The notes: a model not told the origin generated them from the letters alone. A stretch of 64,000 bases of DNA from an uncultured Candidatus Saccharibacteria bacterium (GCA_964644035.1 CAZXUH010000001.1:393093-457092); one strand, 5' to 3'. Positions 8,101-64,000 are shown, counted from the stretch's first letter. A program made the numbers and translations.

Positions 8101-11100
8101 CTTCAAACAAAACAGTATTCGTTGACGAAGCGATTCTGAATGGATTCGTTCCACCCACTCCTGTGACCTGGAGTGTTGTGAGGGGTGTTGAAGTTCCTAC
8201 TCCTACTTTGCCTGCAGTGTATGAAAGATCATTGACTGTTTTTGTCCAGTAGTTGATCGAGGCTGGGAGTGTTGTTGAACCCAAGATATAGTTCGATACA
8301 CGTTGATCTGTGTAATAAAGATTTGAACCTTCTGCAACATTTGTTGTCAAAAAGCCAAGCGATGAAGTTGAAGTCCAGAGTGGAGCTGCAGTTGAACCTT
8401 GTGACAGAAGTACTTGGCCCAAGGTTCCATTTTGATTGTTGAATGCTACAGCGCCAGATTGATTGATTTCGAACATCTTCGTATGAGTCGATGAAGAAAC
8501 CAAGAATGGGTTGTTAGCACCTCCTCCTGTTATTTGCAATCGCGCAAGCGGAGTTGTTGTGCCGAGACCAACATTGCCACTGAAGTAAGCTCCCCCATCG
8601 ATAAAGCTTATATAAGAAGTGCCGATACTCGTTCCACTTGACTGTGTAGTCGAACTAAACACCAATTGTCCTGAGGCATTGGTATATGTGTAACCCTGCA
8701 ATGCATCACTAATCGATGTTCCATGGCGCCACTCGATCGCACCACCTCGTCGTGGAGGAGTAGGTCCTGCCGAAAGACCAGTGAGCACAATTTTTCCTCC
8801 ACCAGTCTGCCAATCACCAACATACAGATCTCTTCCCGCATTTACAAATACATCGCTATAAAATGTTGACGTACCTGATCCCAAAACATTGAGCACACCT
8901 TCAGCTGATATATTTCCTGCGAAGTAACCATTACCAGCAACTGAAAGTTTTTCAATTGGTGATGAACTTCCAATACCGAAGTTACCGTTTTGCAAAAGTT
9001 GGAGCATTACCGCATTTGTCGAAGATGACACTCTAAATGGATTCGTGCCCCCTACTCCTGTGACCTGGAACGTGGTCAAAGGCGTTGAAGTACCTACAGC
9101 AACTTTTCCAGTGTTGTAGTAGATATCAGATCCGTTGGTAATCCACTGTGATGAAGATGCAACGCTCGCAAATCCAAGCGAAGAGGTTGCTACCCATTGA
9201 GGCGCTGCAGTCGAACCAAATGATCGGAGAATAAATCCTGATGTTCCGGCATCGTTGTTGAAGAGTACAGCACCTGATTGATTGATTTCAAACATCTTCG
9301 TATTTGTTGAAGAAGAGATGAGGAAAGGACTTGCTGTGCCCGCACCTGTTACCTGAAGTCGAGCGATAGGTGTCGTGGTACTCAATCCAATATTTCCAGT
9401 ACTCAAATCACCAAAAAGCGCATTGCCTATGTTTAAGAAATTGGAATCAGAAGCTGAGCGAGCAAGTACTGAACCGATAAGTATGTTATTCGCACCTGTC
9501 GTTGAGGTTGTACCAACCCGATAACCGAGCATAATGTTATTTGATCCAGATGTAAGTGCTCCGCCTGACTGATAACCCACAAGCGTATTGGCAGAATTTC
9601 CTGTACCACTGCCCTGACCTGACAAATAACCAATTGCTACGTTCGCAGAACCTCCGTTGTTTTGGCTTCCAGCGTGGTTACCAATGTAGACGTTTACCAA
9701 TCCACCAGCATTTGAAGATCCTGCACCAGTACCAAGAAATACGTTGTTGCTACCTGTACTGCCACTACCAGCCGAATTACCTAAGAAGAGGTTGTTGCCT
9801 CCCGAAACGTTACCTGTACCAGCATTCGATCCGAGGAAGATATTGTCCGAGCCACCAACATTGGAGAATCCAGACTGATTTCCAACAAAAATGTTGTCAT
9901 TACCGCTTGTATTTGAAAATCCAGACTGATTTCCAACAAAGAAGTTATATGCTCCGCTTACTCCAGCAGCAACAGGTGTTGCACCTCCCAAAAACAAGTT
10001 GCCGGTCGTTGTTGCCAATCCAAAGAGCTGTCCGCCTGAGTAATAACTCGTGCTATCAGTGATACCAGCTACCGTAAGTGCTGCCCATGGAGTGGTTGTA
10101 CCAACACCCACCTTTCCTGTCGCACGATAGACATTACCCGATCCAAGAGTCCAATAGTTAATCGAAGCAGGAAGTGTTGTTGAACCAAGTACATAATCAG
10201 ACACCCTTTGGTTTGTGTAATAAAGATTTGTTCCTTCTGCTACGTTTGTTGTGAGAAAACCAAGTGTTGAAGTAGAAGTCCAGACTGGTGCAGCTGTTGA
10301 ACCTTGCGACAAGAGAACCTGTCCGAGTGTTCCGTTTTGATTGTTGAATGCTACTGCACCCGACTGATTGATTTCAAACATCTTCACATTTGTCGAAGAT
10401 GAGATGAGGAATGGGGATGAGGCTCCAGCACCAGAAACATGTAATCGAGCTATTGGTGACGAAGTACCAATCCCAACTAGACCATTTCCAGTTATTGTCA
10501 TAAGTTCAGTAGCGCCTGAGCTAAAGAACGAAAATGCTTTGCCAAACGCTGTACCCGATGGCTGTGATGTACCTGAGAATAAATCAACACCGTAATTACC
10601 ATTGAGTTGGAAAACATTTACCTGTGCAAAATCTGATGGTCTGCGGTACTTTATAGGATTGTTGTAATCAAGAACGATTGAGCCATTTGCAATATCGAGT
10701 TTCTGTTGGGGGGTTGTTGTACCGATACCAACATTGCCTTGGACAATCAATCCATTCGTAGGAGGTGTCTGGTTGTAATATCCTGTACCAATTGCCGCAT
10801 ATCCATTAACACCAAGTAATGTTCCAACATATATTCCGCTATTGGTATCACCAGCAACACCAAGCTGCAATTTTGCACGAGATGCACCATCTCCAGTCAC
10901 CGCATCGAGCGTTGGCAATGAACCTGCACCACCGATCACCATACGTGCGAAGTTGAAGCTTGCATTTCCAGCACCATCGGGATCAGCGAACCAGATTTGT
11001 TTGTTGTTTACCGCATTGTATCCGAGTGAGAACAAGAAACCGCTACCGCTACTTACTCCGCTGAGTGAGCTGCCGGTAAATGCAATACCACGAGTAGAAG

Positions 11101-14100
11101 TTGCTCCAGTTGCTGATTGAGCAACAGTAAAGTTCGCAGCGGGAGTTGATGTGCCGACTCCGATATTCCCATTGTTCAAAATAGTGAAGAGTGACGTTCC
11201 GGTTGAAGATGAAACGTTGAATGGATTGACTCCACCTGTTCCTTGAAGATTGAATGTATACGATGACGATGATGCATTGATACCAACAACCGATCCATTC
11301 TCTCGGAGAATAGAATCTGTAAATGCGCTACCTGTCCATCGTGGCATGAAGCCCGATGTGAGAGAGGCGGTGATTGCTGATGAAGTAAAGCCAAGTGAAG
11401 ATGTTGATGTCCAAACAGGAGCTGCTGTTGAACCTTGTGACAAGAGGACCTGACCCAATGTTCCAGCCTGATTATTAAAGAGGGCTGCACCTGATCTATT
11501 GATTTCAAACATCTTCGCATTTGTTGAAGATGAAATAAGGAAAGGACTTGCTGTACCTCCACCTGTTAGCTGAAGTTTTGCAATAGGTGTAGTTGTACCA
11601 ATACCGATATTTCCTGAAGAATTAATTGTCATATGAACAACACCAATACCCGCTCCATCTCCAGTCATAAACTGTAGATCATTAAATGTGCTATCACCAG
11701 CAACAGTACCAATTACAAGTGCGTTGTTTTGTGCTCCTGTAACGACGTCTCCAGCAGAAGTTGTAAGTGCTGAGCCAACAAAACCAAAGTACCCTGTGGT
11801 GAGAGAACCATCCTGGAGCAAGGAGATTCCAGGGTTGTCATTCTCATCGTTATTATCAGTATCAGAATCAATTACAAATAAACCGTCGCCTGCTATACCA
11901 CCACTAACATGAAGACGACCGCTTGGAGACATAGTGCCGATACCGACATTTCCGTTTTGCAAAATCTCAAACAAACTTGCATTTGTCGATGAAGAAACTC
12001 TGAAAGGATTGGTACCACCTGTTCCCCTTACTTGAAAAGTATTGAGCGGTGTTGATGTTCCTACACCAACTTTTCCTGCAGTGTATGAAAGATCATTAAC
12101 TGTTTTTGTCCAGTAGTTGATTGAAGCAGGAAGTGTTGTTGAGCCCAAGATATAGTTCGATACACGTTGGTCTGTGTAATACAAGTTTGAACCTTCGGCG
12201 ACGTTTGTTGTGAAGAATCCGAGAGAAGATGTTGAAGTCCATAGAGGTGCTGCAGTAGAACCTTGTGAAAGTAGTACTTGGCCAAGTGTTCCGTTTTGAT
12301 TGTTGAATGCTACTGCACCTGACTGATTGATTTCGAACATCTTGGTATTTGTCGAAGATGAGACGAGGAATGGATTTGATCCTCCAACTCCTGTTACCTG
12401 CAATCGCGCAAGCGGAGTAGTTGTACCTACACCCAGATTTCCAGTTGATGAGATAGTGATCTTTGCAGAATCACTTGAACCAATCTGAATACTATTTGCA
12501 ATTGAGTTGTTGATGTTTTGTCCAATAATTGTCGCATCTGCTGCCGACACAATGTTGTTGTAACCAAAAATGAGTCCGTTACTTCCGCTTGAAGTATTTG
12601 CATTACCATAAAGTACTGAACCTCCGGCTTCTGCTAGGTTATCCCTACCGATAAGTACAGCATCAGACGAAGAAGCAATGTTACCTCTTCCGATCAATGT
12701 ACTATCGGCAGAAAAAGCATTTGCGCTGTTTGAGATACCAACAATAAATACATCTGCTGCCTCGTTAAGGTTCGATGATCCAAAAATAGATCCACCTGAA
12801 CCATTATTACTATTGCCCAGACCAAATGTAACAGCATTCGCTTTAGTCGAACTATTCGAGAGTCCAACTACAAACTGCTCAGTTTCAACACCTCCCCCCG
12901 TCAAAGCATTGTCACGACCAAAGGATGCACATTGTTCGCAATCCACTGAGTTTGCAAAACCAATTGCAATCGTTTGAACTCTGGACGCCTGGTTGTCGGC
13001 ACCGAAAGCTATTGCATTAACTCCGCTGGCTACCCATGTAGGATCGCCATGCGAAGATTGAATATCGATAGAGCTCGTTCCGCGCGCATTACCGGAAGTG
13101 TCTCCAATCACCACCGCATTTGTAATTGGATACTTCATTGAGAGAGCTCCGTAAATGCTTGTTGTGCCAACCACATACAACGGTGTTGCTGGCGTCGATG
13201 TACCAATACCAACATTACCTGTATTGAAGTAAATGTTAGCGCCGTTATTGATCCATTGTGACGAAGTAGCTGTACCTCCAATACCAAGTGATGAAGTTGC
13301 GACCCAGATAGGCGCAGCTGTTGAACCTTGAGACAAAAGCACTTGACCAAGCGTTCCAGCTTGGTTGTTGAAGAGCGCTGCGCCCGATTGATTAATCTCG
13401 AACATTTTCGCATTTGTTGAAGATGCAATGAGGAACGGACTTGCTCCACCAGCACCCGTGATCTGAAGTCGAGCAATAGGTGTCGATGTACCAATACCCA
13501 ATCGATCGTTTGTATCATCCCAAATAAAATTGGCTGCATCGCTTGAAAGATAACCGTTGGTCGATGCAAATGGAATGATGCCAGAACTAAACGCCGTAGC
13601 GCTGCTGTTTTGAAGCAAAATATTTCTATCGGTGTTGGCTGGTGAGAAGTAAAGCTGCGTTCCGTCGTATTCGACTGCTCCAGCTTCAGCCGATGTGAGG
13701 TTGGTACCAGGGCTGAACTTGAGAGGTGCCGTGCTTGCAGATGCCGTACCAGTTGCAAGATGAAGCAAAGCGCTAGGTGTTGTAACACTGCCTCCCAAAA
13801 ACAACTTACCGTTGAGTTTGCTGCTCAATCGGTCGGTCAAATTCAATGCAATAGTGCCATTGCCATCATAGAGATTCATTGCACCACCGTCGACATGGAT
13901 AAACGATGAACCATTTTGAGAGCGGAATGAGTATGAGTACACACCAATGTTTGGAACAATGCGAGCCTGACCCCCGGCACCAGTGAAGAGGGCGATACCG
14001 TCATCAGCAACGCTGAAACGCTCTACATCAGCACTGTTGAATGTTGCAAAATGCTTATCAGAACCACTACCGGTACTGCGAACAGTCAGACGATGCGTCG

Positions 14101-14704
14101 GTGTGGATGTACCAACGCCAACATTGCCGCTTGAAGTGATCGAAAATACTGAGCTTGTGCTTGCACCAAAGAATTCTGCAACCTTGCCAGCACCAGTTTG
14201 GATGATGCTCATAAACGTCGAAGCACTTGAGGTGCTGTTGCTCTGATCGTTTCTGAAAAATGCACTTCCCGAAACACCGCCAAGTGTTCCCGCATCTTTT
14301 GCAATCATTGCTGCAGGCACTGCACCGAGAATTTTTCTTGGTGTCATTTCACTATCCGCTTCGATCGTCACACCAAGATACAACACCTGATTGAAATCAA
14401 TACTCGTCAACGAAGTTGTTGAACCGAGCATGATGCTGAAGAGTCCGTCGGTTACTTGTACGGTGTCCGACTCTGTCCAGATTGCAACGCCACCTGTTGG
14501 AACTGTGTAGAGTTTGAAAACGATATCGTAATCACCGTTGGTGACTGCAATGTTTGCCGGAGTGGTGAGACGACCTTGATAATTGATTTGAGGATTGAAT
14601 GCAGCTTGTGCAACTGGCATTTCAAAAAATCCGACGAAAGGAATTGCGAGTGATGCAACGAGAACGAGGACTGACACTGGGATGTACAATAGTTTTTTTA
14701 TCAT
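2195..14704 (-). CDS. Giant (4169 aa) secreted, fibre-like surface protein. It has an N-terminal signal/TM, a tail-fibre-like N-terminal domain, more than 8 repeated ~50-aa modules (GIGTTTP..ARLQVTG..SPFLISSSTN.KMFEINQSGA), Gly/Asn-rich beta-helix-like repeats, a C-terminal intramolecular chaperone auto-processing (peptidase S74) domain, and a Pro/Glu/Thr/Asp-rich tail.
   Basis: Single uninterrupted ORF. N-terminus MIKKLLYIPVSVLVLVASLAIPFVGFF..AQA is signal-like. The C-terminal segment CTSDQRLKKNIATL..SFNWLAENDAAERHPGFIAQEVEAVFPDLV..DGYKSLAYSSFAPYLVQGIQEL matches the conserved S74 chaperone-of-endosialidase motif set (approx DNA 2575-2900). The final ~76 aa are PE/T-rich low complexity. Confidence 0.8.
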   Translation of the reverse strand: MIKKLLYIPVSVLVLVASLAIPFVGFFEMPVAQAAFNPQINYQGRLTTPANIAVTNGDYDIVFKLYTVPTGGVAIWTESDTVQVTDGLFSIMLGSTTSLTSIDFNQVLYLGVTIEADSEMTPRKILGAVPAAMIAKDAGTLGGVSGSAFFRNDQSNSTSSASTFMSIIQTGAGKVAEFFGASTSSVFSITSSGNVGVGTSTPTHRLTVRSTGSGSDKHFATFNSADVERFSVADDGIALFTGAGGQARIVPNIGVYSYSFRSQNGSSFIHVDGGAMNLYDGNGTIALNLTDRLSSKLNGKLFLGGSVTTPSALLHLATGTASASTAPLKFSPGTNLTSAEAGAVEYDGTQLYFSPANTDRNILLQNSSATAFSSGIIPFASTNGYLSSDAANFIWDDTNDRLGIGTSTPIARLQITGAGGASPFLIASSTNAKMFEINQSGAALFNNQAGTLGQVLLSQGSTAAPIWVATSSLGIGGTATSSQWINNGANIYFNTGNVGIGTSTPATPLYVVGTTSIYGALSMKYPITNAVVIGDTSGNARGTSSIDIQSSHGDPTWVASGVNAIAFGADNQASRVQTIAIGFANSVDCEQCASFGRDNALTGGGVETEQFVVGLSNSSTKANAVTFGLGNSNNGSGGSIFGSSNLNEAADVFIVGISNSANAFSADSTLIGRGNIASSSDAVLIGRDNLAEAGGSVLYGNANTSSGSNGLIFGYNNIVSAADATIIGQNINNSIANSIQIGSSDSAKITISSTGNLGVGTTTPLARLQVTGVGGSNPFLVSSSTNTKMFEINQSGAVAFNNQNGTLGQVLLSQGSTAAPLWTSTSSLGFFTTNVAEGSNLYYTDQRVSNYILGSTTLPASINYWTKTVNDLSYTAGKVGVGTSTPLNTFQVRGTGGTNPFRVSSSTNASLFEILQNGNVGIGTMSPSGRLHVSGGIAGDGLFVIDSDTDNNDENDNPGISLLQDGSLTTGYFGFVGSALTTSAGDVVTGAQNNALVIGTVAGDSTFNDLQFMTGDGAGIGVVHMTINSSGNIGIGTTTPIAKLQLTGGGTASPFLISSSTNAKMFEINRSGAALFNNQAGTLGQVLLSQGSTAAPVWTSTSSLGFTSSAITASLTSGFMPRWTGSAFTDSILRENGSVVGINASSSSYTFNLQGTGGVNPFNVSSSTGTSLFTILNNGNIGVGTSTPAANFTVAQSATGATSTRGIAFTGSSLSGVSSGSGFLFSLGYNAVNNKQIWFADPDGAGNASFNFARMVIGGAGSLPTLDAVTGDGASRAKLQLGVAGDTNSGIYVGTLLGVNGYAAIGTGYYNQTPPTNGLIVQGNVGIGTTTPQQKLDIANGSIVLDYNNPIKYRRPSDFAQVNVFQLNGNYGVDLFSGTSQPSGTAFGKAFSFFSSGATELMTITGNGLVGIGTSSPIARLHVSGAGASSPFLISSSTNVKMFEINQSGAVAFNNQNGTLGQVLLSQGSTAAPVWTSTSTLGFLTTNVAEGTNLYYTNQRVSDYVLGSTTLPASINYWTLGSGNVYRATGKVGVGTTTPWAALTVAGITDSTSYYSGGQLFGLATTTGNLFLGGATPVAAGVSGAYNFFVGNQSGFSNTSGNDNIFVGNQSGFSNVGGSDNIFLGSNAGTGNVSGGNNLFLGNSAGSGSTGSNNVFLGTGAGSSNAGGLVNVYIGNHAGSQNNGGSANVAIGYLSGQGSGTGNSANTLVGYQSGGALTSGSNNIMLGYRVGTTSTTGANNILIGSVLARSASDSNFLNIGNALFGDLSTGNIGLSTTTPIARLQVTGAGTASPFLISSSTNTKMFEINQSGAVLFNNDAGTSGFILRSFGSTAAPQWVATSSLGFASVASSSQWITNGSDIYYNTGKVAVGTSTPLTTFQVTGVGGTNPFRVSSSTNAVMLQLLQNGNFGIGSSSPIEKLSVAGNGYFAGNISAEGVLNVLGSGTSTFYSDVFVNAGRDLYVGDWQTGGGKIVLTGLSAGPTPPRRGGAIEWRHGTSISDALQGYTYTNASGQLVFSSTTQSSGTSIGTSYISFIDGGAYFSGNVGLGTTTPLARLQITGGGANNPFLVSSSTHTKMFEINQSGAVAFNNQNGTLGQVLLSQGSTAAPLWTSTSSLGFLTTNVAEGSNLYYTDQRVSNYILGSTTLPASINYWTKTVNDLSYTAGKVGVGTSTPLTTLQVTGVGGTNPFRIASSTNTVLFEVQQNGNVGIGSNDIPSANGGAKLYVRGTGASTASWRGRIVAGGDNVAFLMGEYNSQAWLGGHSAALNAWADLYIQPDGASSVFIGDSTSNGSADSPVLSVLNSSGSVGVGTSSPASIFSVVGTTTVFGALSVSHPGSSGAIIMGDTSGAARGARSIDIQSRRTAHNQVASGPESIIIGQYNSATSTLGNSIAIGGSNNVGGGIYNAALGSFNIVNGRSGPIDGYSTAIGNSNTINVGYGTAVGSFNTVSAANSLVFGNFIVNDVASSLMIGPTATVKLTMLTGGNSGFGTTSPLARLQITGAGGSSPFLVSSSTNTKMFEINQSGATLFNDSAGTLGQVLLSQGSTAAPLWVATSSLGFANIASSSQWITNGSDIYYNTGKVAVGTSTPLTTFQVTGVGGTNPFRIASSTNVSLLEILQNGNVGINTVNPSSKLTVTGNVGIINPSSSNPDLAFTTGGSSVTIAGSKTIIDIGGDYDISGALIGVKSTPVGVSFIFGPTSVVSYYGNPTGGQVNYGLYMVGENHNYLSGRLGIGSSTPSGQLAIRGSSTAPTVPLVDIASSTGASIFRINANGHVGIATPIPTSELQIGTVAEGNLTVDVGSGVDAQATFSWTTDPRISFNTNSNNWGTGVIGGGIRLGVSGLYSYLVSAGGNLIINPTAGNVGIGTTTPISRLQVTGSGTVTPFLISSSTNTKMFEINQSGATLFNNNAGTLGQVLLSQGSTAAPVWTSTSSLGIPGLSKWTQTGNDIYYMTGNVGIGTTTPTSLLTVAGTSMMRDILPSAPYSGNMSAYNLGATGARWNSVWAGTYNVGTTTWSISATGPDRFGIFDAASAGGNEYFSILQNGMVGIGSSTPLATLSIEGLNASDVSSSDAPEALRVLGGSGTDAGGGVTIIGGEGGNGGTGGGVITIRSGAGTGSNSFGGNLVLAAGSASGAASTVGGSLSITAGSAGSTGTGGAVTITAGDAGTSGTAGNVTINPGLKAGVEYANVLLAALGGRVGIGTTTPVAQLNVKGISSAPTTPLFEVASSTNNSIFRINSNGNVGVGITNGTANLSIENPNDNTDSFAIYSGGTERFSMQVSAASTDTASFFVRNNNVMTLNEDTLVGIGTTTPAAKLQVTGSAGTNPFRIASSTNTVMLQLLQNGNFGVGVANPTTKVSLGSDTANTKLAIYDDGTSTMGLGAQSGQFRFNLYTSANNRYSFMDAPAGNEIFTILGTGKVGVGTTTPLTKFQVTGSAGSSPFRVSSSTNSSMFEILQNGYVGIGNSNPAKILTINDSGGLATMRIERTGQVNNLQADFAIQTPGGVQHFQIDVTDGASTAKTLSLNPSGGLVGVGTSSPATSLQVRGIGGTNPFRISSSTNVSLLEINQAGNVGIGTTSPLVKLDVNGGIHTNNGIIINTTGNNTTAAPGTLQIYGTNNKLRMTYPGVVDTDFVINSSGHLTITGMNNVGIGTTTPIARLQITGAAGATPLFEISSSTNHAPGKPSGTLMRVLSTGQVAIGTSTPFKGAALTIERNNADASGNSYRALGFNNTSSFLFHGGYTMDIISDASGVVQNMASDPTYDSNGIITSITCQHGGRSCSSLEVINGELRYNQRMTAALGGYLGAVLTISNGAVSIGSTTPGATFSVRGTSTRPTKIIFDVASSSGATLLRVNADGNIGIGTTSPLARLHITGIPGANSTFRISSSSNETVLEVAPNGFVGIGTSTPAYMLSVGNASTTGVIARFQNTNGTCDVDPTSSALSCTSDQRLKKNIATLSTSSSLEKLRNLRSVSFNWLAENDAAERHPGFIAQEVEAVFPDLVNTNPDGYKSLAYSSFAPYLVQGIQELDMKVTTLEQLIASTSAMLSSVSIFDRIQATLGVFTKVQTSELCLDDVCINKDQLRALLNQTGGSTPPPSNPGNGGGDEPPPDDGNASSTPPVEDETPSDEPPPEDTSADETPSEDTPADSGSEQETPPVEEPPVTEPTP
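4300..13450 (-). repeat. Intragenic near-identical DNA repeats within the giant gene, with 0.8-1.3 kb spacing
   Basis: The motif ...ctgattgatttcaaacatcttcgtatttgttgaagatga.. recurs at ~6011, 7141, 8461, 9281, 10361, 11491, 12321 and 13381, with weaker copies at 4341, 4680, 6850, 8100, 8990, 11180 and 11960. A second motif, ccttgtgacaa(g/a)ag.acctg.cc.a..gttcc, precedes each copy. Confidence 0.8.
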
Positions 14705-15075
14705 TTTCCTATTTGTGCATCCTTGTCCAATAACGTGACTGTTTCTGTAAGACTCTTTGCGGGAGTTTTCAGTGCAACATTTGATGTTGTTGTCTCACCT
14801 GAAAAATAGAAAAAGGCGGATGCAAATCCGCCTACACAAAAGAGAAATACTGCAACCAAAAGTCCTCGACCATTTGCAAACAATGCTCTCCCGGCTGGCA
14901 CGTAGTGCTTGGTCATGAAATAAGATTTTACTTCCCGTTCACTGACAAACCAGTTGCGGCCTACCTTCTTACCTTTGACCTTTCCAGAACGAATAAGAGC
15001 CCCGATGTAATCGGAGTGATACCCTGAAATTTGGGCGGCTTGCTTAAGCGTGATGTAATCCTGAAATATGGCCAT
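14701..15075 (-). CDS. Membrane-tethered helix-turn-helix protein with an HTH_17/excisionase-type DNA-binding domain and one TM helix; stop codon overlaps the giant gene start (ATGA)
   Basis: ITLKQAAQISGYHSDYIGALIRSGKVKGKKVGRNWFVSEREVKSY fits the HTH_17 pattern (..IRsG.l....gr.wri..). A hydrophobic stretch LLVAVFLFCVGGFASAFFYF follows, then a 30-aa tail. The 4-nt overlap 14701-14704 is read directly from the coordinates. Confidence 0.6.
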   Translation of the reverse strand: MAIFQDYITLKQAAQISGYHSDYIGALIRSGKVKGKKVGRNWFVSEREVKSYFMTKHYVPAGRALFANGRGLLVAVFLFCVGGFASAFFYFSGETTTSNVALKTPAKSLTETVTLLDKDAQIGK

Positions 15076-15204: not shown

Positions 15205-16596
15205 TTAATAAAGTTTTTGAGTTTTTTCCCTTATGAAAATTCTGACGATTACGTAGATTCCGATGAACAAAATGATCAAGTAAATGAGCAAAAATAAACC
15301 AATGAAAAATATAATTTGTCTATTTTTTAGACTTCCCTGCCCGACAAGATTTGAGCTCGAAATAAACATACCTGGAACGTGCGTTTCGCTACCTCGACTC
15401 AAGAAAACAATGTCAAAAAATGAGTCTCCGGAGGTAAGTGAAGCAGGCACTACAACTTCAAGATATCCATCGCTATGTTTTCTGAAAAGAAATGTATTGA
15501 TGTTACCCTTTTCGATGATTCGAATGTATGACTGTTCTGTATTTTTTGGTATGACCGATTTTGGTACACGCACGATCACTGCTTGTTGATTGTTGATAGA
15601 AAAATTTTGTCGTGAACCAAAAATCCTCGCACCATTTTGAAAAAATAAAATCGATTCAGTTGCTGTGGTCGAAGTTGAAATAGTATTTCCGCCAAAAAGT
15701 GGAAGTGATCCAAAATTGTTTCCCGATGAATCGTAGAAAATAAAATCGGTGACCGCGCCGGAAGAATAATTTCCAAATCGATCTCGTGCAAACGCTGTAT
15801 AAAAATAATGCATGTTTGAAAATGCATTTGAATCGAGTGCTTGCTGTCCCCGACCTTCGTACACAAAATATCCTTCTTGAGGATCGCGCGGATAATATCT
15901 CGTACCGCGTCTGATACGAACAAAATCAAAATCTTCATCGCGAGGATTCTTCCACGTCAGCAAAATATTTCCTCCAAATGAAAGTTCAGCACGAAAATCA
16001 GTAATGTTCGAAGGTGGCGTACGATCAAACAATGATTTTGTTCTAAACGCATAGGTCACCTGCGCCGACTGACCAAAACCGTCCGATGCTCGAACTGTTA
16101 CGTAGTACAGCGTATCCGGCAAAAGGTTGGTCAGCAAAATATTGTGAATATTCCTCAGATCAGTTTCAGTAACATTGCCCGCCGAAGTATCTGGATCGGT
16201 ACCCCAGGAAACCGTGGACAAAGTCTTGGCTGGGGTCGTCCAACTCACTATGGCCGTCGTCGTAGAAGCCTCTATTTTGAAGTTTTCGAAGACAATTGGC
16301 CATTTGTACGTACCTCCAGGACCTGGTTCGGCGGGAGGTTGTGGTGCCACAGAAGGTGTGGTTGTGGGAGTCGGAGGGGTGGTAGTAGCAGTACAATCTG
16401 AAGGACAACTACTGACCGTTTCCCCTAAAAACAGTTCGCAAATCAGATTGTTATTACAGCCCTCAACCAAGAGCTCGATTACCGTCGAATCATCCGCTGT
16501 CGCGGCCTGTACCGAAGAATGTCCTATAGAAACATAAAGGACACAGACCGAAATTACCAGAAATAACCAGGCAAATGTCGTCTTTTTTGAAAGCAT
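15205..16596 (-). CDS. Secreted, membrane-anchored protein with an N-terminal signal, a Cys-rich segment, a Pro/Thr linker, two fibronectin-III-like domains and a C-terminal TM anchor
   Basis: Signal MLSKKTTFAWLFLVISVCVLYVSIG..VQA. Linker TTTPPTPTTTPSVAPQPPAEPGPG. FN3-like stretches (TAIVSWTTPAKTLSTVSWGTDP...LYYVTVRASD; ILLTWKNP..DFVRIRRGT..YFY). C-terminal IIFFIGLFLLIYLIILFIGIYVIV plus RIFIREK. Confidence 0.6.
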   Translation of the reverse strand: MLSKKTTFAWLFLVISVCVLYVSIGHSSVQAATADDSTVIELLVEGCNNNLICELFLGETVSSCPSDCTATTTPPTPTTTPSVAPQPPAEPGPGGTYKWPIVFENFKIEASTTTAIVSWTTPAKTLSTVSWGTDPDTSAGNVTETDLRNIHNILLTNLLPDTLYYVTVRASDGFGQSAQVTYAFRTKSLFDRTPPSNITDFRAELSFGGNILLTWKNPRDEDFDFVRIRRGTRYYPRDPQEGYFVYEGRGQQALDSNAFSNMHYFYTAFARDRFGNYSSGAVTDFIFYDSSGNNFGSLPLFGGNTISTSTTATESILFFQNGARIFGSRQNFSINNQQAVIVRVPKSVIPKNTEQSYIRIIEKGNINTFLFRKHSDGYLEVVVPASLTSGDSFFDIVFLSRGSETHVPGMFISSSNLVGQGSLKNRQIIFFIGLFLLIYLIILFIGIYVIVRIFIREKTQKLY

Positions 16597-16603: not shown

Positions 16604-17359
16604 TTATAACGCTACTGCTGTTGCCGTGATAACTGCCGAATAAGCACCACTTTCTTGCATCTTTGACGGTCCTATTTCAGCTCTTACCTTGACGGTCGTG
16701 GTGGCGCCCGAAGGATGGTTGGAACCGGTCGATTGCGATATATTCTTGGTTGTTAGAGTAAAACCGTCCCAGCAAGCGTCTGCGGTGTCAGAGGAGCCTG
16801 TATTACACACAGAACTGTTATCTTTGAAGCGTGGAAGAATATCAGCTCCTTCTGGGCTAAATCCAAAGGCCGATGTAGTCGAAACTATAGCAAAAGTATA
16901 ATCAGGGTCAGCACTTGCCGGTGTGTAATCGTCAAAAGAGATTCCTCCGGAGGTTTGAAGTGCAGGATCAGTCGAGGCTTGGACCGAAAGCACGTAGCCA
17001 GCGCTATTGTCGGTCAATACATTCCAAGCGATAGAACCATTACTCGTACCTCCAATCAAGCCGTTGATATCAGCAAGCGCCACATCTGGTGGTGAGCTAA
17101 TCGAGATATACGACGTATACATCTGCTGATACCCAGCTTTCATGACATAGTTGGTGCTACTGGAAAGTCCTGTTGCTATCTCACCTACCGTATCTTCGAG
17201 ATTGAAACTGGTACTCGTCGAACGCCCTCCCCCGACATCAATAGCATCAAAATTGATTTTGTAATTGGTACTTTGCATTGCAGCAAAAGCCGAAACGAAA
17301 GACAGTGAGAGAATACCGATGGCAATGTACGCGCCCGCGCGCATGATTTTATTTATCAT
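16604..17359 (-). CDS. WxL-like secreted cell-surface protein (Csc-cluster-like, small subunit type)
   Basis: Signal peptide; Ser/Thr/Gly-rich beta-rich composition. The C-terminus SGAYSAVITATAVAL resembles the WxL C-terminal motif G.Y.GTLTWTL but lacks Trp. Start overlaps the upstream gene by 4 nt. Confidence 0.45.
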   Translation of the reverse strand: MINKIMRAGAYIAIGILSLSFVSAFAAMQSTNYKINFDAIDVGGGRSTSTSFNLEDTVGEIATGLSSSTNYVMKAGYQQMYTSYISISSPPDVALADINGLIGGTSNGSIAWNVLTDNSAGYVLSVQASTDPALQTSGGISFDDYTPASADPDYTFAIVSTTSAFGFSPEGADILPRFKDNSSVCNTGSSDTADACWDGFTLTTKNISQSTGSNHPSGATTTVKVRAEIGPSKMQESGAYSAVITATAVAL

Positions 17360-18360
17360 TGCTTGCGACGAAATTCAAATCTTGAAAGGAAGAAGTAAGA
17401 AATAAGTATAAGCAGGACAAGACCACCGCCAACAGCAAGAAGAATTTTCCACGGAAGAATCCAGAATGCCAGAACTTTGGTATCAATAATGTCACCGTAA
17501 CCTCGATTGAGTTCGAGAGTTGCCTTGTAACGTCCGATCCTGAAGCTATCATCTGCCCAATTTACATCTCGGTAACGCAATGAATCTGGAAGTGAGAAAT
17601 AAGCGTCAATCGGTAAAACTCCGATTTCACTACCAAACAGATTGCTAATCCTGATCACACCGTAGGGCGCCAAGTGCACACTACCTGTGTTGTTGAAAAG
17701 TATTTGGAATTTGTCAGGAGATGTTTCGTATATCCAATGTTTATCTGAAATACGAAAATCTTCCACAAAACCGCTTTCATTTACCGGACCGTTGACTCTG
17801 ACAAAAAACAAGACACCGACACGAGAAATAATCTGAGCACCACTAACCGAAGTACTACTGTCGTTCTGAGGCCCATTGGCGACAATTACCGACGAATAAT
17901 AGCCTCCCGGCAAGGCATTTGCTGGGATTTGTATGGTGATAGGAATAGTGATTCTATCCCCAAAATTAAGGGTAAAATCGGAAACTGCAGGCCGTAAAGA
18001 GTCCTTAAATGAATTAGGGCTTCTGTCATCGCCAAGAAGAACAACGGGATTTTGTTCTTCACGAGAACCGACGAAATCTTCGGTCGTAACCTTGAAATCC
18101 GTCTTCCTGTTTATACGACTGGTAACTGAAATATATTTGACGATTGTGTCGCCCGGATCAGCAAAAATTTCCATTTTGCCTGGTTCGAGAACGAAGTCAT
18201 TTTTGTCATCGACACTCATCGATGTGATCTGAGGTCTTTCGGAAGTCTGAGCAAATGTTGCCGCAGGAGCAAGTATGCACGACATCAATACGATTAAGAA
18301 TGCAATATTCTTAGTACGGCTTAGTCCGCAAGATCGTAGTATTGATTTCTTTTTCGGCAT
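17356..18360 (-). CDS. DUF916/DUF3324-like cell-surface protein with a C-terminal TM anchor (CscA-like)
   Basis: Signal peptide; N-terminal domain ..ITSMSVDDKNDFVLEPG..; C-terminal ..YKATLELNRGYG..VLAFWILPWKILLAVGGGLVLLILISYFF plus RRKQ. This is the architecture of DUF916-DUF3324 proteins in WxL loci. Confidence 0.5.
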   Translation of the reverse strand: MPKKKSILRSCGLSRTKNIAFLIVLMSCILAPAATFAQTSERPQITSMSVDDKNDFVLEPGKMEIFADPGDTIVKYISVTSRINRKTDFKVTTEDFVGSREEQNPVVLLGDDRSPNSFKDSLRPAVSDFTLNFGDRITIPITIQIPANALPGGYYSSVIVANGPQNDSSTSVSGAQIISRVGVLFFVRVNGPVNESGFVEDFRISDKHWIYETSPDKFQILFNNTGSVHLAPYGVIRISNLFGSEIGVLPIDAYFSLPDSLRYRDVNWADDSFRIGRYKATLELNRGYGDIIDTKVLAFWILPWKILLAVGGGLVLLILISYFFLSRFEFRRKQ

Positions 18361-18365
18361 TTTTA

Positions 18366-19028
18366 TTAGATCGTTGTCGCTGTAGCCACGATGGTAGCCT
18401 TGTATGTTCCGGATGGAATATAGGAGTTATTCTGTTCTACCGCATAGCAGACCGTACTGTCAACACCCGAAGTTGTTGTTGTCGACGAGCGTGTAGCGAT
18501 TGTTACGTCCGATGTTGTGAAGCCTTTGTATTTGAGTGTAGTTGAAGTTGCGTGAGCGTTGGTAGTAGTGCTGCAGAGAGATCCTGTTCCCCATGTACCA
18601 GTTGGTACATCGGTACCGAAGGCTGAGTAGCCAAATTCGTATGTACCAAATGGAGTACTCCAAAATGCCGGTGCGCCAGTCTGGTCGTCACCAATAGTGT
18701 TGGTTGAGGATTGCATAGCAGGAGTAGAAGTAGCCTTGACTGCGAGGGTGTAGCCGAGGTTATTGTTTGTCTTAACATTCCAAGTCGTTGTCGCAACAGC
18801 ACTGTTTTGCGCGACACCGACTGCTGTACTCATGGTTGCATCAGCAGGGCTCGTGATCGAAATACCAGCGGTCACGTTGAGCGTGATAATGACCGTATCT
18901 GATGCCGAGGCCTGTGCTCCAGCGTACATCGGTTCGAGAGATGCGTACGTAACCAGTGCGCCGACGCTCAAGACCAAGTATGATGCAGCGAGCTTAAATA
19001 TTTTTTTCTTAATGTTCATGATGTACAA
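18366..19028 (-). CDS. WxL-like secreted cell-surface protein
   Basis: Signal MNIKKKIFKLAASYLVLSVGALVTYAS. TTTWNVKTNNNLGYTLAVKAT resembles the first W.L region. The C-terminal SGTYKATIVATATTI resembles the WxL terminal motif. It is the first gene of the 4-gene minus-strand operon. Confidence 0.45.
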   Translation of the reverse strand: MYIMNIKKKIFKLAASYLVLSVGALVTYASLEPMYAGAQASASDTVIITLNVTAGISITSPADATMSTAVGVAQNSAVATTTWNVKTNNNLGYTLAVKATSTPAMQSSTNTIGDDQTGAPAFWSTPFGTYEFGYSAFGTDVPTGTWGTGSLCSTTTNAHATSTTLKYKGFTTSDVTIATRSSTTTTSGVDSTVCYAVEQNNSYIPSGTYKATIVATATTI

Positions 19029-19260
19029 TTTACCCTCTTATAATTTCCAGACCCTAATAGTACAGGAATCATTCTAAATGTCACAACTGCAATATATGAA
19101 TAAGATGTGTATAAACCGTTAATAACCCACAGTATCATTGTATATAGACGTTTTATGGCCTATATTCTGACAAGAAACTTTTATTTTTAGACCGAATTTA
19201 GATTTATTTTATTTAAATTTTAATTAAATAAATCTTTTTATTTTGTCGAGAAAACTTTTT

Positions 19261-32077: not shown

Positions 32078-33115
32078 CTACTCTCCTGCTACTTCTGCAG
32101 CAGCTTTAGGGGCTTCTGGCTTAGTAGCCTTTTTGCCATGTGAGACACCATCGACTTCATAGCTTGTATTTTGAGCTTCGAAGAAATTGACCAATTCAAA
32201 GACGTCAGTAGCAGTACTCATCCATTTTGCAGGATTGGTTGCATTGTAATGCTTTGGCAAACCAAGCTCTTCGAGACGTCGATCAGCCACATATTGCACG
32301 TACTGATTCACATAGTCAGCATTGAGACCGAGAATACCGTTTGGAAAGAGATCCTTGTTGTATTCTGTTTCGAGATTGACGCCTTCGACGATAATACCCT
32401 TGATTTCATTGGCAAATTCTTCGGTGAGGAGCTCTTGGTTTTCTTCAAGAATATGCTGAACCAAATTCATACCGAACTTCAAGTGCAACGATTCATCTCT
32501 AATGACCCAGTTGATCATTGAACCGAAATTGCGCAATTGATTGCGCTGACGGAATGAAAGAGCAACCATAAAGCCCGAATAGAACCAAATACCTTCCATG
32601 ACAATGTTGGTAGCAACGAGGTTTCTAATAAAATCCATCTTGCCTTCTGTGGTTTCGATATCGAGAGTATCGTCCATCATTCTCTTCATGTATTTATTGA
32701 TGAAGTTTTCCTTGGCCTGCATTGATGGAACTTCGAGGTGCACACCGAAGACCTTTTCACGGTCAAATGGAAACGTTTCGAGCACATACTCAAAAGCCAC
32801 ACAATGATTGGCTTCTTCCCACATCTGCTTTGCGAGATAGAGGTGACATTCTGGAGATTTTAGATATGGATATACACCAAGCGCAATCGAACGATTCACA
32901 ATAAGCTCGGCTGGATTAAAGAAAGCCATAAGAAATGAAACTGCATGCTTTTCGTCATCAGTCATCTTTTCCCAGTCTTGCAAATCTTCCTTGAGAGCAA
33001 TTTCGTGAGGAAACCACGTATTGCGAACTGCCTGCTGATACAAATCATATGCCCACTGATACTTGATCGGGTGCAGATTCATGTCTTCGGGCGAGGCTTT
33101 TCCTATGAGTGGCAT
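32078..33115 (-). CDS. nrdB: Ribonucleoside-diphosphate reductase beta subunit (class I R2)
   Basis: ..EANHCVAFEY.. and the ferritin-like di-iron ligand region match RNR R2. Confidence 0.9.
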   Translation of the reverse strand: MPLIGKASPEDMNLHPIKYQWAYDLYQQAVRNTWFPHEIALKEDLQDWEKMTDDEKHAVSFLMAFFNPAELIVNRSIALGVYPYLKSPECHLYLAKQMWEEANHCVAFEYVLETFPFDREKVFGVHLEVPSMQAKENFINKYMKRMMDDTLDIETTEGKMDFIRNLVATNIVMEGIWFYSGFMVALSFRQRNQLRNFGSMINWVIRDESLHLKFGMNLVQHILEENQELLTEEFANEIKGIIVEGVNLETEYNKDLFPNGILGLNADYVNQYVQYVADRRLEELGLPKHYNATNPAKWMSTATDVFELVNFFEAQNTSYEVDGVSHGKKATKPEAPKAAAEVAGE

Positions 33116-59903: not shown

Positions 59904-60689
59904 TTATTGAAATGCAGGTTGAAGAATATCTTTGTTTGCACTCCTGCTCAAAGGAAATTCCTGAATACCGAGTGCATATGGACCAATTGAGTATTGTCCG
60001 AATATGAAGACAATATCGCTGTCAGTCACATACCACGTAGAAAAGGTCTGCGCTTCTGGTTTGGTTCCATCGTCGATACTGCTTGCTTCGCCCTTTTTAA
60101 ATTTATCTTTAAAATATGCCCTGGCCTTGTTTGAGAGATTAGTATACAGAGAGAAATCTGGTTTGAAAATATCTTCTACACCTAAGCGTTTATTCGATGC
60201 ATCGTAGGTAAATGACGTCACACTCGTAATACCATGCGCTCCTCCGGTATAACTATAGACCTCTATAATATAGCTGACTGTCTTTGCAGAAGTGATTACT
60301 TTTGTATTGATGATCAGATTCCACGGACTACGATCGAGGCCCATGATCTCTATATCTTTCTGAGAAAGATCGTTGAAATTCTCGATGAAGCCATTTTTCT
60401 CTGATTGGATAAACTTGTATACATCAGGCAAAACTGTAGATGAAGATTCCGGATACGAGAGATCGAGCGTGTAGTTGCTCGTTGTTGCAGTTTCCCTGAC
60501 AATTTTAGCGGTTTTAATGGCCTGCACTTTTGAAGTAGTAGCCTGGGTGTTTTGAGCATCTGGCACTTCCCTAAATTCGCGAGAGAATTTTATCAAGGCG
60601 AATACCATGAATATAATGACAAGGATAAGGGTAATGAACACGGCGCTCAGTACAATAAATGGCTTTTTCATGCACGTATTATACACCAA
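59904..60689 (-). CDS. Membrane-anchored DUF4163/DUF3298-type (RsiV/PdaC C-terminal-domain-like) protein
   Basis: The N-terminal TM, then ..YSYTGGAHG.. (hallmark of DUF3298). Confidence 0.6.
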   Translation of the reverse strand: MVYNTCMKKPFIVLSAVFITLILVIIFMVFALIKFSREFREVPDAQNTQATTSKVQAIKTAKIVRETATTSNYTLDLSYPESSSTVLPDVYKFIQSEKNGFIENFNDLSQKDIEIMGLDRSPWNLIINTKVITSAKTVSYIIEVYSYTGGAHGITSVTSFTYDASNKRLGVEDIFKPDFSLYTNLSNKARAYFKDKFKKGEASSIDDGTKPEAQTFSTWYVTDSDIVFIFGQYSIGPYALGIQEFPLSRSANKDILQPAFQ

Positions 60690-60748
60690 ACAAAAAAACA
60701 GCCCCAGATAGCCTGGAAGCCGCTTTTATTGTCAAAATAGTCCGATAT

Positions 60749-61981
60749 TTAGAGACCCAAATTTGATTTAAGGGAAGAATCAACTTCTAAAAGTGTGTCA
60801 TTCCCCTGAGCGGAACTTGAAGCTGAAGTATTTGATCCCTGACTTGCCTCTACTCCTGAAGAAGCATTTGCCGAGAGATCAATATCATCTACAACCGCAT
60901 CGATATCAACCTTAATCTTCAAATATGATTCTGCCTCTATCTTTGCTTCTTCGGCTTTCTTTTGTGCCTTTTTAAAGAGGACTAGAGCTTCGCTTTGCGC
61001 TTCGGCTTCCAAGCGAACTTCTGCCTGAGCTACAAAATCTTTGGCTTCTTTGATTGTAATCTGAACTCGAGTACGTGTCTCAGCATCTATCTTGTCGCCT
61101 TTGAGATATGCTTCCGCGTCGACTATGCTACTTGATGCCGCAGCTCGTGCATCTTCCATGATTTTGTTTATGTCACCTCCAGCTTCAAATGTCGCCTTTG
61201 CTGAAGCTTCCAAGCGAGTATTGCTTGCCGCTTCAAGACGAGAACGAGCTGAACCGATAGCATCGACAAAAACTGAAGTAACCTTTGTCTTCGACGCTGT
61301 CATAGTCATTGTGAGACCAGCCTGATTTGCAGCTTTTGCATCTGCTTCGCTGAGTGCAAAGTTGCCGCTCATTGAGAATGCTGCATATTGATGAGCGCGT
61401 AGTTGCCCTTCAAAATCTCCTGCGAGCAAGATTGCATCGGCATCATCGGCATCGGCTTTTTCTATGTATTCAATAGCCTGATTAGCATGATCTAAAAATC
61501 GTGCCTGAAGCTCAGCCTCTGTTTCGCCGTCGAGTGATCCCTTGAAAGCCAGCGCTTCGGCCTCTTCGAGACGATTGACTGCATGCTTAGCTTCTACCTT
61601 TGCTTTGGCTTCGCCACCAAATGCTAATGTAGATTGAACTTTTTCGTTAACATTGATTTTTATGGGGTACAGACTGTCTCCCGGCAATGTATCCTTGGCT
61701 GCATATGTTACTCCGCCGGTCAGAAGGGCTACGATTAATATAAGTGCTGGCATGGTTGTTTTCCAATTAAATATAAACGTTGATAATGGTGACAGCTTTC
61801 TAGGGCTGTATTCTTGTAGACGAACAGGCGAACTCTCCATGACACGAGTCTTCGAAATATGAGTATTGAGTCTCTCTCGTATAATATCTTTCTCTTCCTT
61901 AGAAAGGATGATAGATCGAGCTTCTTCTATGGTAGATTCAAACCTGTTCTTCATGATTAAAATATAATCTTGCTTTCTCAA
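60749..61981 (-). CDS. Putative anti-sigma factor with an extracytoplasmic DUF5667-like helical domain; it overlaps the sigma gene
   Basis: A cytoplasmic N-terminus of about 75 aa, TM MPALILIVALLTGGVTYAA, then DTLPGDSLYPIKINVNEKV.. (DUF5667 start motif), followed by an Ala/Glu-rich helical region. Confidence 0.55.
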   Translation of the reverse strand: MRKQDYILIMKNRFESTIEEARSIILSKEEKDIIRERLNTHISKTRVMESSPVRLQEYSPRKLSPLSTFIFNWKTTMPALILIVALLTGGVTYAAKDTLPGDSLYPIKINVNEKVQSTLAFGGEAKAKVEAKHAVNRLEEAEALAFKGSLDGETEAELQARFLDHANQAIEYIEKADADDADAILLAGDFEGQLRAHQYAAFSMSGNFALSEADAKAANQAGLTMTMTASKTKVTSVFVDAIGSARSRLEAASNTRLEASAKATFEAGGDINKIMEDARAAASSSIVDAEAYLKGDKIDAETRTRVQITIKEAKDFVAQAEVRLEAEAQSEALVLFKKAQKKAEEAKIEAESYLKIKVDIDAVVDDIDLSANASSGVEASQGSNTSASSSAQGNDTLLEVDSSLKSNLGL

Positions 61982-62471
61982 TTCCCCTGTGATATCGAAC
62001 GGTCACAGTATTCTCCGGTTCCCCGGTAATTTCTGAAATTTCCTTAAAGGAAAGATCCTGCACGCACCTCATGACGATGATATCCTTGTATTGTTTGGGT
62101 ATCTTATCAAGCAATGCTAGTGCTCGACCTCCGTCCAAATGGTCCAGATTGATAGACCCTTCGGATGCTTCAGGCTCGAAGCCATCCTCTTGGAGGGCAT
62201 CGAGCGAATCAGCCTTCTTTTTCCGGTAGTGATCGATGATCAGGTTATTGAGAATCTTATAGAGAAATGCCTTGAGATTGTCTACATTCTGACCTCCCGT
62301 CAGATAGTTCCATGTCTTCATAAGCGCTTCCTGCAGCAAATCCTTTGATAGTTCCCTGTCTCCCGTCTTATACAAGGCATATCTAAAAAGGGCGTCTGCA
62401 TGCTTTTCGTAAGACTCCAAAAAATGTTCTTCGGCCACGACTTTCATGATATATGACGAATGCATGAGCAA
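61938..62471 (-). CDS. ECF-type RNA polymerase sigma-70 factor; start uncertain (62471/62465/62447)
   Basis: Region 2 (..FRYALYKTGDRELSKDLLQEALMKTW..) and region 4 (..KDIIVMRCVQDLSFKEISEITGEPENTVTVRYHRGIEK..). Confidence 0.8.
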   Translation of the reverse strand: MLMHSSYIMKVVAEEHFLESYEKHADALFRYALYKTGDRELSKDLLQEALMKTWNYLTGGQNVDNLKAFLYKILNNLIIDHYRKKKADSLDALQEDGFEPEASEGSINLDHLDGGRALALLDKIPKQYKDIIVMRCVQDLSFKEISEITGEPENTVTVRYHRGIEKARLYFNHEEQV

Positions 62472-62535
62472 TACATGACATCCGTATATCTTTAGGATAT
62501 ACCACCTCTTGGCAAAAGCAACCGTCTATTGTGGC

Positions 62536-63140: not shown

Positions 63141-63293
63141 TTACTGAATAGGATTTTGTCCTTTGATAAGTCTAATGAGAATAGCAATGATGGCTATTAC
63201 GAGTAGAACATGAATGAAACCTCCAATGGTATAAGAAGTCACTATTCCCAAGAGCCATAAGACGATAAGTATGATTGCAATTGTCCAAAGCAT
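63141..63293 (-). CDS. lmo0937-family small membrane protein (50 aa; not in the ORF track)
   Basis: Hand translation: MLWTIAIILIVLWLLGIVTSYTIGGFIHVLLVIAIIAILIRLIKGQNPIQ*. Confidence 0.55.
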   Translation of the reverse strand: MLWTIAIILIVLWLLGIVTSYTIGGFIHVLLVIAIIAILIRLIKGQNPIQ

Positions 63294-63594: not shown

Positions 63595-64000
63595 TTACGG
63601 ACACGCTACGATTCCACTTCCAAGTGCAGAAGAAATTTGTCGCGCTGCTCCGCTGTTGTCGACACACCAATATGCACCAGTGCCAGAAAGTTGTGCAGAC
63701 ACTGCGTACGCAACACCGCTACTGTTGCATACAAGACTTGAATACGAAGGATAATTTGAAGCTGAAACCAGTCGTGCCAAACCTGCCGATGTATCAGTAA
63801 ACATTCCACTGCCGCAACTAGTACTGACCGATCCATAATCTCCTGCTGTTGTGTAGTAGAGCTCAGCTGCATTTCTAATATGCGCCATTTGAGCCTTTAT
63901 CTTGGCGTCATTTCCCTTGGTACGTGCAGTACCAAGTGCTGAGAGAGCAATAGCCGAAAGAATACCCATAATGGTAATAACAACCAGAAGTTCAATGAGG
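63595..64000 (-). CDS. Type IV pilin/pseudopilin (prepilin-type N-terminal methylation domain); N-terminus runs off the window end
   Basis: The open frame at the window edge encodes ..LIELLVVITIMGILSAIALSALGTARTKGNDAKIKAQMAHIRNAAELYY.., the class III signal/hydrophobic helix motif. A C-terminal Cys pair is present. Confidence 0.8.
   Translation of the reverse strand, partial: LIELLVVITIMGILSAIALSALGTARTKGNDAKIKAQMAHIRNAAELYYTTAGDYGSVSTSCGSGMFTDTSAGLARLVSASNYPSYSSLVCNSSGVAYAVSAQLSGTGAYWCVDNSGAARQISSALGSGIVACP

Follow-up and report, generated by a model that had tools for sequence, protein, structure and literature searches.

A group of three adjacent genes is described here from a 64,000-nucleotide stretch of DNA, referred to as the window, of an uncultured Candidatus Saccharibacteria bacterium (GCA_964644035.1 CAZXUH010000001.1:393093-457092). 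All three lie on the minus strand. The gene at 61938..62447 encodes an extracytoplasmic function (ECF, group IV) sigma factor, that at 60749..61954 a candidate single-pass anti-sigma factor with a DUF5667 ectodomain, and that at 59904..60671 a membrane-anchored protein with DUF4163 (PdaC) and DUF3298 domains. An earlier note on this DNA had reported three co-directional open reading frames (ORFs), which are found at the coordinates it gave. It had tentatively interpreted them as a sigma factor, its anti-sigma and a lysozyme or envelope-stress sensing domain on a separate polypeptide, the three forming a split sensor. This interpretation is half right: the sigma/anti-sigma part is supported, and the split lysozyme-sensor part is not. 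The locus is an ordinary ECF sigma/anti-sigma pair, of the type known from RsbN of Streptomyces, beside an unrelated gene.

The Pfam profiles relevant to the three products (Sigma70_r2/r4, DUF5667, DUF4163/DUF3298) all match above their thresholds. Both sigma regions noticed earlier, 2 and 4, are present (Sigma70_r2, 1.3e-11; Sigma70_r4_2, 3.6e-12). Pfam gives no region 3 match, so that a 169-aa protein lacking sigma-3 falls within group IV. The sequence also passes the general NCBIfam model TIGR02937 (sigma70-ECF), with 74 bits for a cut-off of 42.9. The specific NCBIfam sigma models, SigV, SigW, SigM and BldN among them, all stay far under their cut-offs; SigV model NF053879, at 70 bits for a cut-off of 190, shows that this is not a SigV orthologue. 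The top PDB match of the single sequence is a SigH/SigE chimera, with SigW second.

All three genes probably start downstream of the first codon of their longest ORF. The sigma ORF extends over 61938-62471 if read from TTG 62471; the most likely start is ATG 62447, since a copy of a conserved promoter with fixed geometry occupies 62451-62481 and places this ATG 7 nucleotides (nt) past its CGTC element. The longest ORF of the second gene (60749-61981) has the 410 aa given in the earlier note. The DUF5667 domain (8.8e-11) and the single membrane pass claimed there are borne out; the start is moved to ATG 61954, from which the 401-aa product is identical to database protein P0001. Likewise, the third product is likely to have 255 aa from ATG 60671, because it is then identical to database protein P0006, instead of the 261 aa of the longest ORF (59904-60689).

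Pairing of the sigma and DUF5667 genes

DUF5667 proteins form a very large family throughout the candidate phyla radiation (CPR, or Patescibacteria). An exhaustive search retrieves 20,964 clusters (50% identity) at E <= 1e-3, and 3,381 at E <= 1e-30. Word-indexed homologue searches with the window protein gave 5 and 20 matches, probably because Ala/Glu-rich words swamp the index, and exhaustive searching was needed. Close relatives of the window proteins all come from Patescibacteria/CPR metagenome bins. The family is unstudied: among 8 million papers searched, none contains the name DUF5667, and nothing relevant was found on ECF sigma factors in Patescibacteria.

Genomic context was compared at 80 loci with a DUF5667 relative, one genome per species and nearly all from CPR bacteria (Paceibacterota, Saccharibacteria, Peregrinibacteria and others), with iterated profile searches of their ORFs. 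In about 74 of these species-level loci the DUF5667 gene is immediately preceded, on the same strand, by an ECF sigma ORF; the exceptions are mostly at contig ends. With trimming to the conserved N-terminus, 37 of 56 evaluable pairs have a sigma stop that overlaps the DUF5667 start, mostly by 4 or 8 nt, and in 13 more a gap of <=20 nt separates the two. The overlap in the window is 17 nt. All other neighbour families are present at 15 or fewer of the 80 loci. The sigma and DUF5667 genes alone form the unit, and the pairing occurs throughout Patescibacteria. Sigma factors paired with DUF5667 genes at other loci are 30-52% identical to that of the window and thus constitute one coherent group.

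The DUF5667 protein and its relation to RsbN

The candidate anti-sigma factor has three parts. The cytoplasmic head (aa 1-38, 61841..61954) is the presumed sigma-binding domain and comprises two helices, 2-14 and 19-38, in the AlphaFold2 (AF2) model. A disordered linker connects it to the transmembrane helix (aa 64-86, 61697..61765), where the segment MPALILIVALLTGGVTYAA has a Kyte-Doolittle mean of 1.93 and the model places helices 64-79 and 81-86. The DUF5667 core follows at aa 89-171 (61442..61690), beginning at a near-invariant LPGDxLYPIK motif; the Pfam match scores 42.5 bits against a cut-off of 27 and covers aa 98-180 in the numbering of the 410-aa ORF. P91, G92, L95, K99, E104, R128 and E131 are invariant in the core. 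The ectodomain is all-helical over aa 96-357, with a predicted local distance difference test score (pLDDT) of ~85-97 for the most part and lower values at aa ~190-230; the mean for the whole protein is 74.8. This architecture is constant in 84 homologues, in which a cytoplasmic head (median 60 aa) is followed by a hydrophobic helix (98%) and then LPGDxLYPIK. The head itself carries the motif L-[TS]-x2-E-[KR]-x2-h-R-x2-L, conserved across 61-79 homologues, within a fuller pattern that approximates to F-x3-I-K-x-A-K-x-V-x-L-[TS]-x2-E-[KR]-x2-M-R-x2-L-x2-Y-M-x3-P.

The NCBIfam scan of the DUF5667 protein yields no match, the family profile retrieves only coiled-coil noise among PDB sequences, and Foldseek finds no structure with E below 0.29 for the AF2 model. 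The link to a characterised system comes from Streptomyces protein P0054, which the DUF5667 family profile retrieves with E=6e-6 among 5.8 billion sequences. P0054 has a Pfam DUF5667 domain at aa 141-257, right behind its transmembrane helix, and its residues 1-91 match PDB 6DXO chain D at 1.6e-32. Its gene lies behind that of a 260-aa ECF sigma, with Rex-type and GlutR (hemA-type) domain genes nearby, a neighbourhood that presumably corresponds to the Streptomyces bldN-rsbN region. Chain D of 6DXO is RsbN's anti-sigma domain, crystallised with sigma-BldN, and experiments have proven that RsbN binds BldN and inhibits it (PMC6101532). (The PDB sequence file labels this chain 'BldN', apparently by mistake, since its sequence is that of RsbN residues 1-91.) Judged from these matches, P0054 is the RsbN orthologue and DUF5667 is the extracytoplasmic domain of Streptomyces RsbN. 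P0054 thereby connects the CPR proteins with a proven anti-sigma factor, whose ectodomain, topology and gene position they share. The anti-sigma reading is well founded because DUF5667 is the ectodomain of RsbN, and the N-in single-pass topology, the conserved head and the pairing with sigma genes agree with the earlier assignment of the protein as a putative anti-sigma. A very large CPR-wide family is now tied to characterised RsbN. According to the 2018 paper, RsbN homologues 'appear to be found only in Streptomyces' (PMC6101532).

Among the closest known systems is the class III system sigma-BldN/RsbN (ECF121; 6DXO). In both, an ECF sigma gene precedes that of an N-in, single-pass anti-sigma of about 400 aa whose ectodomain opens with the DUF5667 motif (A)LPGDxLY right behind the transmembrane helix. 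The signal would be extracytoplasmic in both. The sigma activates the anti-sigma gene, as stated for RsbN (PMC6101532) and as the predicted promoter suggests for the CPR pair. An hhalign comparison of the heads, which does not reach significance (P=0.15), sets CPR L-T-x2-E-K-x2-M-R-x2-L on RsbN alpha3 L58-D-P-E-V-K63-V-V-Q-R67-A-Q-L70. In this register the sigma-2 contacts of RsbN (K63, the invariant R67 and L70, and M74) fall on the most conserved CPR positions. Differences are also evident: the CPR genes overlap, whereas a 258-nt gap separates those at the Streptomyces orthologue locus, and the host is a small-genome CPR bacterium instead of a developmental actinomycete. The main text of the ECF classification paper assigns BldN to ECF121 and contains no mention of CPR groups. 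Bacillus sigma-W/RsiW and other class I systems, which depend on regulated intramembrane proteolysis, likewise have an autoregulated sigma/anti-sigma operon and a single-pass anti-sigma. The CPR anti-sigma differs from theirs in that it has no zinc-binding or other class I domain and carries an unrelated ectodomain.

Variants of the DUF5667 architecture also occur. Protein P0052 (loci L092 and L093) joins an OmpR-type regulator (Response_reg and Trans_reg_C) via a transmembrane segment to a DUF5667 ectodomain. By this fusion, DUF5667 behaves as a module that can supply extracytoplasmic input to various kinds of transcription factor. Head-less paralogues that start at the transmembrane helix are found at L036:8384-9472, L056:225-1100, L060:4126-5106 and L032:2351-3127. 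All but the last have an ECF-type promoter (16.6-21.5 bits) 37-138 nt upstream, which points to the head-less DUF5667 proteins as members of the sigma regulon.

Promoter of the pair and predicted targets

A conserved promoter precedes the sigma gene. The sequence TGTAAGAA-N-CGTC(T/A)TA, with a fixed spacing of 15 nt from GTAAGA to CGTC, occurs at this position in about 56 of the 70 related loci from which a promoter matrix was built. The sigma ATG follows ~8-12 nt past CGTC, a short distance that implies a leaderless or near-leaderless autoregulated mRNA. The window copy (62451..62481, minus strand; 15.2 bits) reads ATGTCATGTA-N11-TTCGTCATAT, then atc ATG. With a bipartite promoter of conserved -35 and CGT-type -10 element before its own gene, the sigma is predicted to be autoregulated in the manner of ECF factors. 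Bacillus ECF promoters also have a CGT-type -10 element. The conserved promoter provides a sequence handle for regulon prediction in uncultured small-genome bacteria.

When all loci are scanned, the matrix finds 53 sigma promoters plus many other strong sites. The latter precede adjacent, often divergent, genes for secreted proteins with fn3/Pur_ac_phosph_N, DUF5666, GH8 hydrolase or PG_binding_1 domains, and a promoter before secreted fn3, DUF5666, GH8 or PG_binding_1 genes is present in >20 loci. The first regulon predictions point to secreted and surface proteins. A candidate second target promoter lies in the window at 19143..19173 on the minus strand (TTGTCAGAAT-N11-AACGTCTATA, then taca ATG; 18.1 bits). 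Within the intergenic set of the window no other site reaches 10 bits, and P=0.013 in shuffles; the sigma's own promoter is outside this set, as it falls within the longest sigma ORF of the gene call used. Both sites carry the unusual TGTCA variant of the -35 element. An ATG 8 nt past the CGTC of the 19143-19173 site opens a 40-aa hydrophobic ORF (19016-19138). Behind it, on the same strand, is a cluster of signal-peptide proteins (18366-19028, 17356-18360, 16604-17359, 15205-16596, 14701-15075 and 2195-14704). The cluster includes a fn3/Pur_ac_phosph_N protein (15205-16596), a HTH_17 protein and, at its end, a 4169-aa ORF whose C-terminus carries a Peptidase_S74 intramolecular-chaperone domain. 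The fn3/Pur_ac_phosph_N domain type carries the same promoter beside the sigma gene at other loci. This cluster, ~43 kb from the sigma gene, is likely to belong to the sigma regulon. Elsewhere in the window the matrix reaches 15 bits or more at 32930, 27842 and 20770, all inside ORFs, and these matches were treated as chance. At L087:2544-2574 (minus strand), an ECF-type promoter of 16.8 bits with a TGTCAT -35 variant, as in the window, directly adjoins the beginning of a PG_binding_1 gene, which is two genes away from the sigma/DUF5667 pair.

Two further observations concern the position of these promoters. A start codon 6-12 nt past the -10 element is seen with both promoter types, as CGTC-N7-ATG (62447-62481) before the sigma gene and TATAAT-N6-ATG (60669-60685) before the DUF3298 gene. 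The loci concerned are the window, L085, L086, L087 and L096, and on this basis leaderless mRNAs appear to be common in these CPR genomes. An ECF-type motif also occurs within the DUF5667 coding sequence itself (L005, L007, L010, L020, L039, L042, L051, L061, L066, L083, L087 and others), with an invariable reading frame and a distance of 36-50 aa to the PGD motif that follows. Of 77 genes, 14 have a site of 14 bits or more, and in 12 the score is higher than in synonymous-codon shuffles (p <= 0.01). An in-frame ATG directly after the motif in L087 would yield a version without the sigma-binding head. The corresponding site in the window anti-sigma gene (61815-61845, minus strand) has 12 bits, no better than synonymous-codon shuffles (p=0.19), and was rejected.

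The locus probably represents a self-activating switch made up of two genes, for an ECF sigma and its anti-sigma, such as is very common in Patescibacteria; the DUF3298 gene takes no part in it. The proposed mechanism is as follows. A single transcript from the ECF-type promoter ahead of the sigma ATG would carry both the sigma and DUF5667 genes, and the overlapping stop and start codons would couple translation of the two products. The DUF5667 protein would reside in the membrane with its N-terminus inside, its two-helix head keeping the sigma inactive and its helical ectodomain receiving a signal from outside the membrane. In response, the anti-sigma would probably be inactivated by regulated proteolysis, on the model of RseA, RsiW and RsiV; the same has been proposed for RsbN. 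The free sigma would then drive its own operon along with genes for secreted and surface proteins, which in the window likely include the cluster downstream of 19143-19173. Domain content, gene pairing, promoter conservation, topology, ectodomain homology to RsbN and the missing linkage to DUF3298 are observed; sigma binding by the head, proteolytic release, the kind of signal and the target genes are inferred.

A more far-reaching version of this reading is conceivable, though rather unlikely. The pair could be the main, perhaps the only, extracytoplasmic switch of many Patescibacteria, with a minimal two-helix anti-sigma head as a pared-down relative of the class III RsbN domain, with surface proteins under the control of the pair, with head-less versions that tune the response, and with the DUF3298 protein as a possible accessory in one lineage. 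If so, the surface proteins under sigma control (fn3, DUF5666 and giant adhesin-like) may mediate contact with the host cell, and an internal promoter or a separate paralogue would in part of the family produce the version lacking the head.

The DUF3298 gene and competing readings

The third gene product is a two-domain membrane protein. Pfam identifies PdaC/DUF4163 (PF13739, 6.6e-10; 40.4 bits against a cut-off of 29.1) at aa 70-155 and DUF3298 (PF11738, 1.1e-13; 52.3 bits against 24.1) at aa 172-249 of the 261-aa ORF. The DUF3298 profile match anticipated in the earlier note is therefore present; the YSYTGGAHG sequence, taken there for the core of DUF3298, lies outside that domain, at the C-terminal end of the PdaC/DUF4163 match. 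The AF2 model (pLDDT 90) confirms the two-domain DUF4163/DUF3298 fold. In Foldseek, 3CYG (1.7e-11, target-normalised template modelling score 0.75) is a better match than RsiV (5JEN, 1.1e-8, 15% identity), and RsiV is absent from the PDB sequence matches of the protein at E <= 1. The best sequence and fold matches are the uncharacterised DUF3298 proteins 3CYG (Fervidobacterium), 3S5T (Bacteroides) and 4E72 (Pseudomonas), and MPT64 of M. tuberculosis; none has a known role in sigma control. The protein begins MKKP, and its transmembrane helix occupies aa 5-32. With essentially no cytoplasmic part (about 4 residues), it cannot itself hold a sigma factor.

Signals in the 77-nt spacer between the DUF5667 and DUF3298 genes point to separate transcription. 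A terminator scan identifies a terminator-like hairpin with U-tract at 60692..60727 (minus strand; AAAAGCGGCUUCCAGG-CUAUC-UGGGGCUGUUUUUUU), where transcription of the sigma and anti-sigma genes would stop; the folding energy of the 89-nt intergenic stretch is -22.8 kcal/mol (z = -2.4). A housekeeping-type -10 box, TG-TATAAT, follows at 60678..60685 (minus strand), 6 nt before the DUF3298 ATG. This box, read from the sequence, probably provides the gene with its own, leaderless transcription start, and a -10-like box 6-7 nt ahead of the start codon recurs at 5 of 7 DUF3298 orthologue loci. Ahead of the gene, the best scores of the ECF promoter matrix are only 1.8 bits (window) and 0.4 bits (L087). 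Downstream, the gene abuts zwf with a 10-nt gap and so probably heads a unit with zwf and pgi. It would be expressed independently from its own promoter and co-transcribed with these two genes. Housekeeping genes surround the locus in a Pfam scan, with msrA upstream and zwf, pgi and glmS downstream.

The genomic distribution leads in the same direction. A profile from 32 DUF3298 homologues detects no DUF3298 gene within ~6 kb of the sigma/DUF5667 genes at any of the 80 loci; a marginal match in L075 proved to be a cupredoxin. Orthologues of the window DUF3298 protein (40-48% identity) were examined in seven lineages. Five of these have no sigma/DUF5667 pair within 5 kb and share instead a conserved set of housekeeping neighbours: a DEAD helicase or P-type ATPase, VTT/DedA, exonuclease VII, LOG-like, FKBP and TGT genes. 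Only in the window and in L087 is the pair adjacent to the DUF3298 gene, and in L087 the two are divergently transcribed, so that orientations are opposite. The DUF3298 gene is a separately transcribed bystander.

The sensing module proposed in the earlier note would use the DUF3298 protein as an RsiV-like receptor, passing its signal to the DUF5667 anti-sigma within the membrane. The three genes are indeed adjacent and co-directional in the window, a second lineage (L087) has the DUF3298 gene beside the pair, and the protein has the fold of the RsiV ectodomain; Bacillus sigma-V/RsiV (ECF30) likewise combines an ECF sigma with a membrane protein of DUF4163 and DUF3298 domains. In RsiV, however, that ectodomain is fused to a sigma-binding domain and encoded in the sigV operon, whereas the window protein lacks such a domain, has its own predicted promoter and shows no conserved linkage to a sigma gene, and the window sigma is far from the SigV model. 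Lysozyme binding is not general to DUF4163/DUF3298 proteins (Hastie et al. 2016, PMC5014341), and MPT64 does not bind lysozyme (PMC5014341). The hairpin and TATAAT box between the genes, the low matrix scores, the missing DUF3298 genes at the 80 loci and the other neighbourhoods of the orthologues (exonuclease VII, VTT/DedA, DEAD helicase) make a three-gene module very improbable. With the DUF3298 gene outside the unit, a split RsiV-like lysozyme sensor is not supported. A DUF5670 gene is also common to the neighbourhoods of the window and L087, which suggests that the adjacency is leftover shared gene order and not functional recruitment. Its recurrence in L087 nevertheless leaves some room for a lineage-specific link and is a point against full independence; the DUF3298 protein could be an accessory in the lineage of the window.

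Two other readings concern the pair itself. The DUF5667 protein might be no anti-sigma but the regulon's first effector, a membrane or surface protein made from the same transcript, with the sigma controlled in some other way. No Pfam anti-sigma domain is recognised in any of the 84 homologues, head-less DUF5667 genes stand alone behind ECF-type promoters (L036, L056 and L060), and the OmpR-type fusion P0052 indicates that the module is not bound to anti-sigma function. The same fusion argues that DUF5667 feeds sensory signals to transcription factors. Throughout CPR, the sequence and the length of the cytoplasmic head are conserved, stop/start overlap is typical for partners produced in matched amounts, and RsbN, the single characterised family member, is an anti-sigma (PMC6101532). 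An effector role is accordingly considered unlikely, though less so than the three-gene module. A further point against the proposed switch is that the window promoter has a -35 element, TGTCATG, that deviates from consensus and a modest score (15.2 bits), which is reached in 7% of shuffles of the intergenic set. At the other extreme, the pair might be a strict orthologue of Streptomyces BldN/RsbN (ECF121) that controls a developmental surface sheath. The ectodomain is in common, gene order is the same, contact residues align and the candidate targets are secreted or surface proteins. Against this stand differences that also limit the kinship with RsbN in general. The CPR head has ~38 aa and two predicted helices, compared with 91 aa and three helices in RsbN (PMC6101532), and the hhalign similarity of the two is not significant. 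The sigma scores only 66 bits on BldN-family model TIGR02952 (cut-off 206), and the CPR sigma family profile ranks SigW, the best match of solved structure, above the BldN orthologue (104 and 89 bits). The 169-aa sigma has no N-terminal extension and hence no BldN-type pro-sequence. Homologues of chaplins or rodlins were not seen, though no search aimed at them was made. Strict orthology is thus scarcely credible. Given the insignificant head match, a sigma that is not specifically BldN-like and the missing pro-sequence, the pair is best described as RsbN-like in its anti-sigma, without being assigned to the BldN family. The two-gene RsbN-like switch is retained as the probable reading.

Two other genes near the locus deserve mention. 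The DUF5670 gene (63141-63293, minus strand; 1e-15) encodes a 50-aa membrane protein, and its family member beside the pair in L087 is located at 2892-3044. A type IV pilin-like protein with a weak ComP_DUS match is encoded at 63595-63969 (minus strand), where the ORF is cut by the end of the window; related contigs have a PF07963 N_methyl gene at this position.

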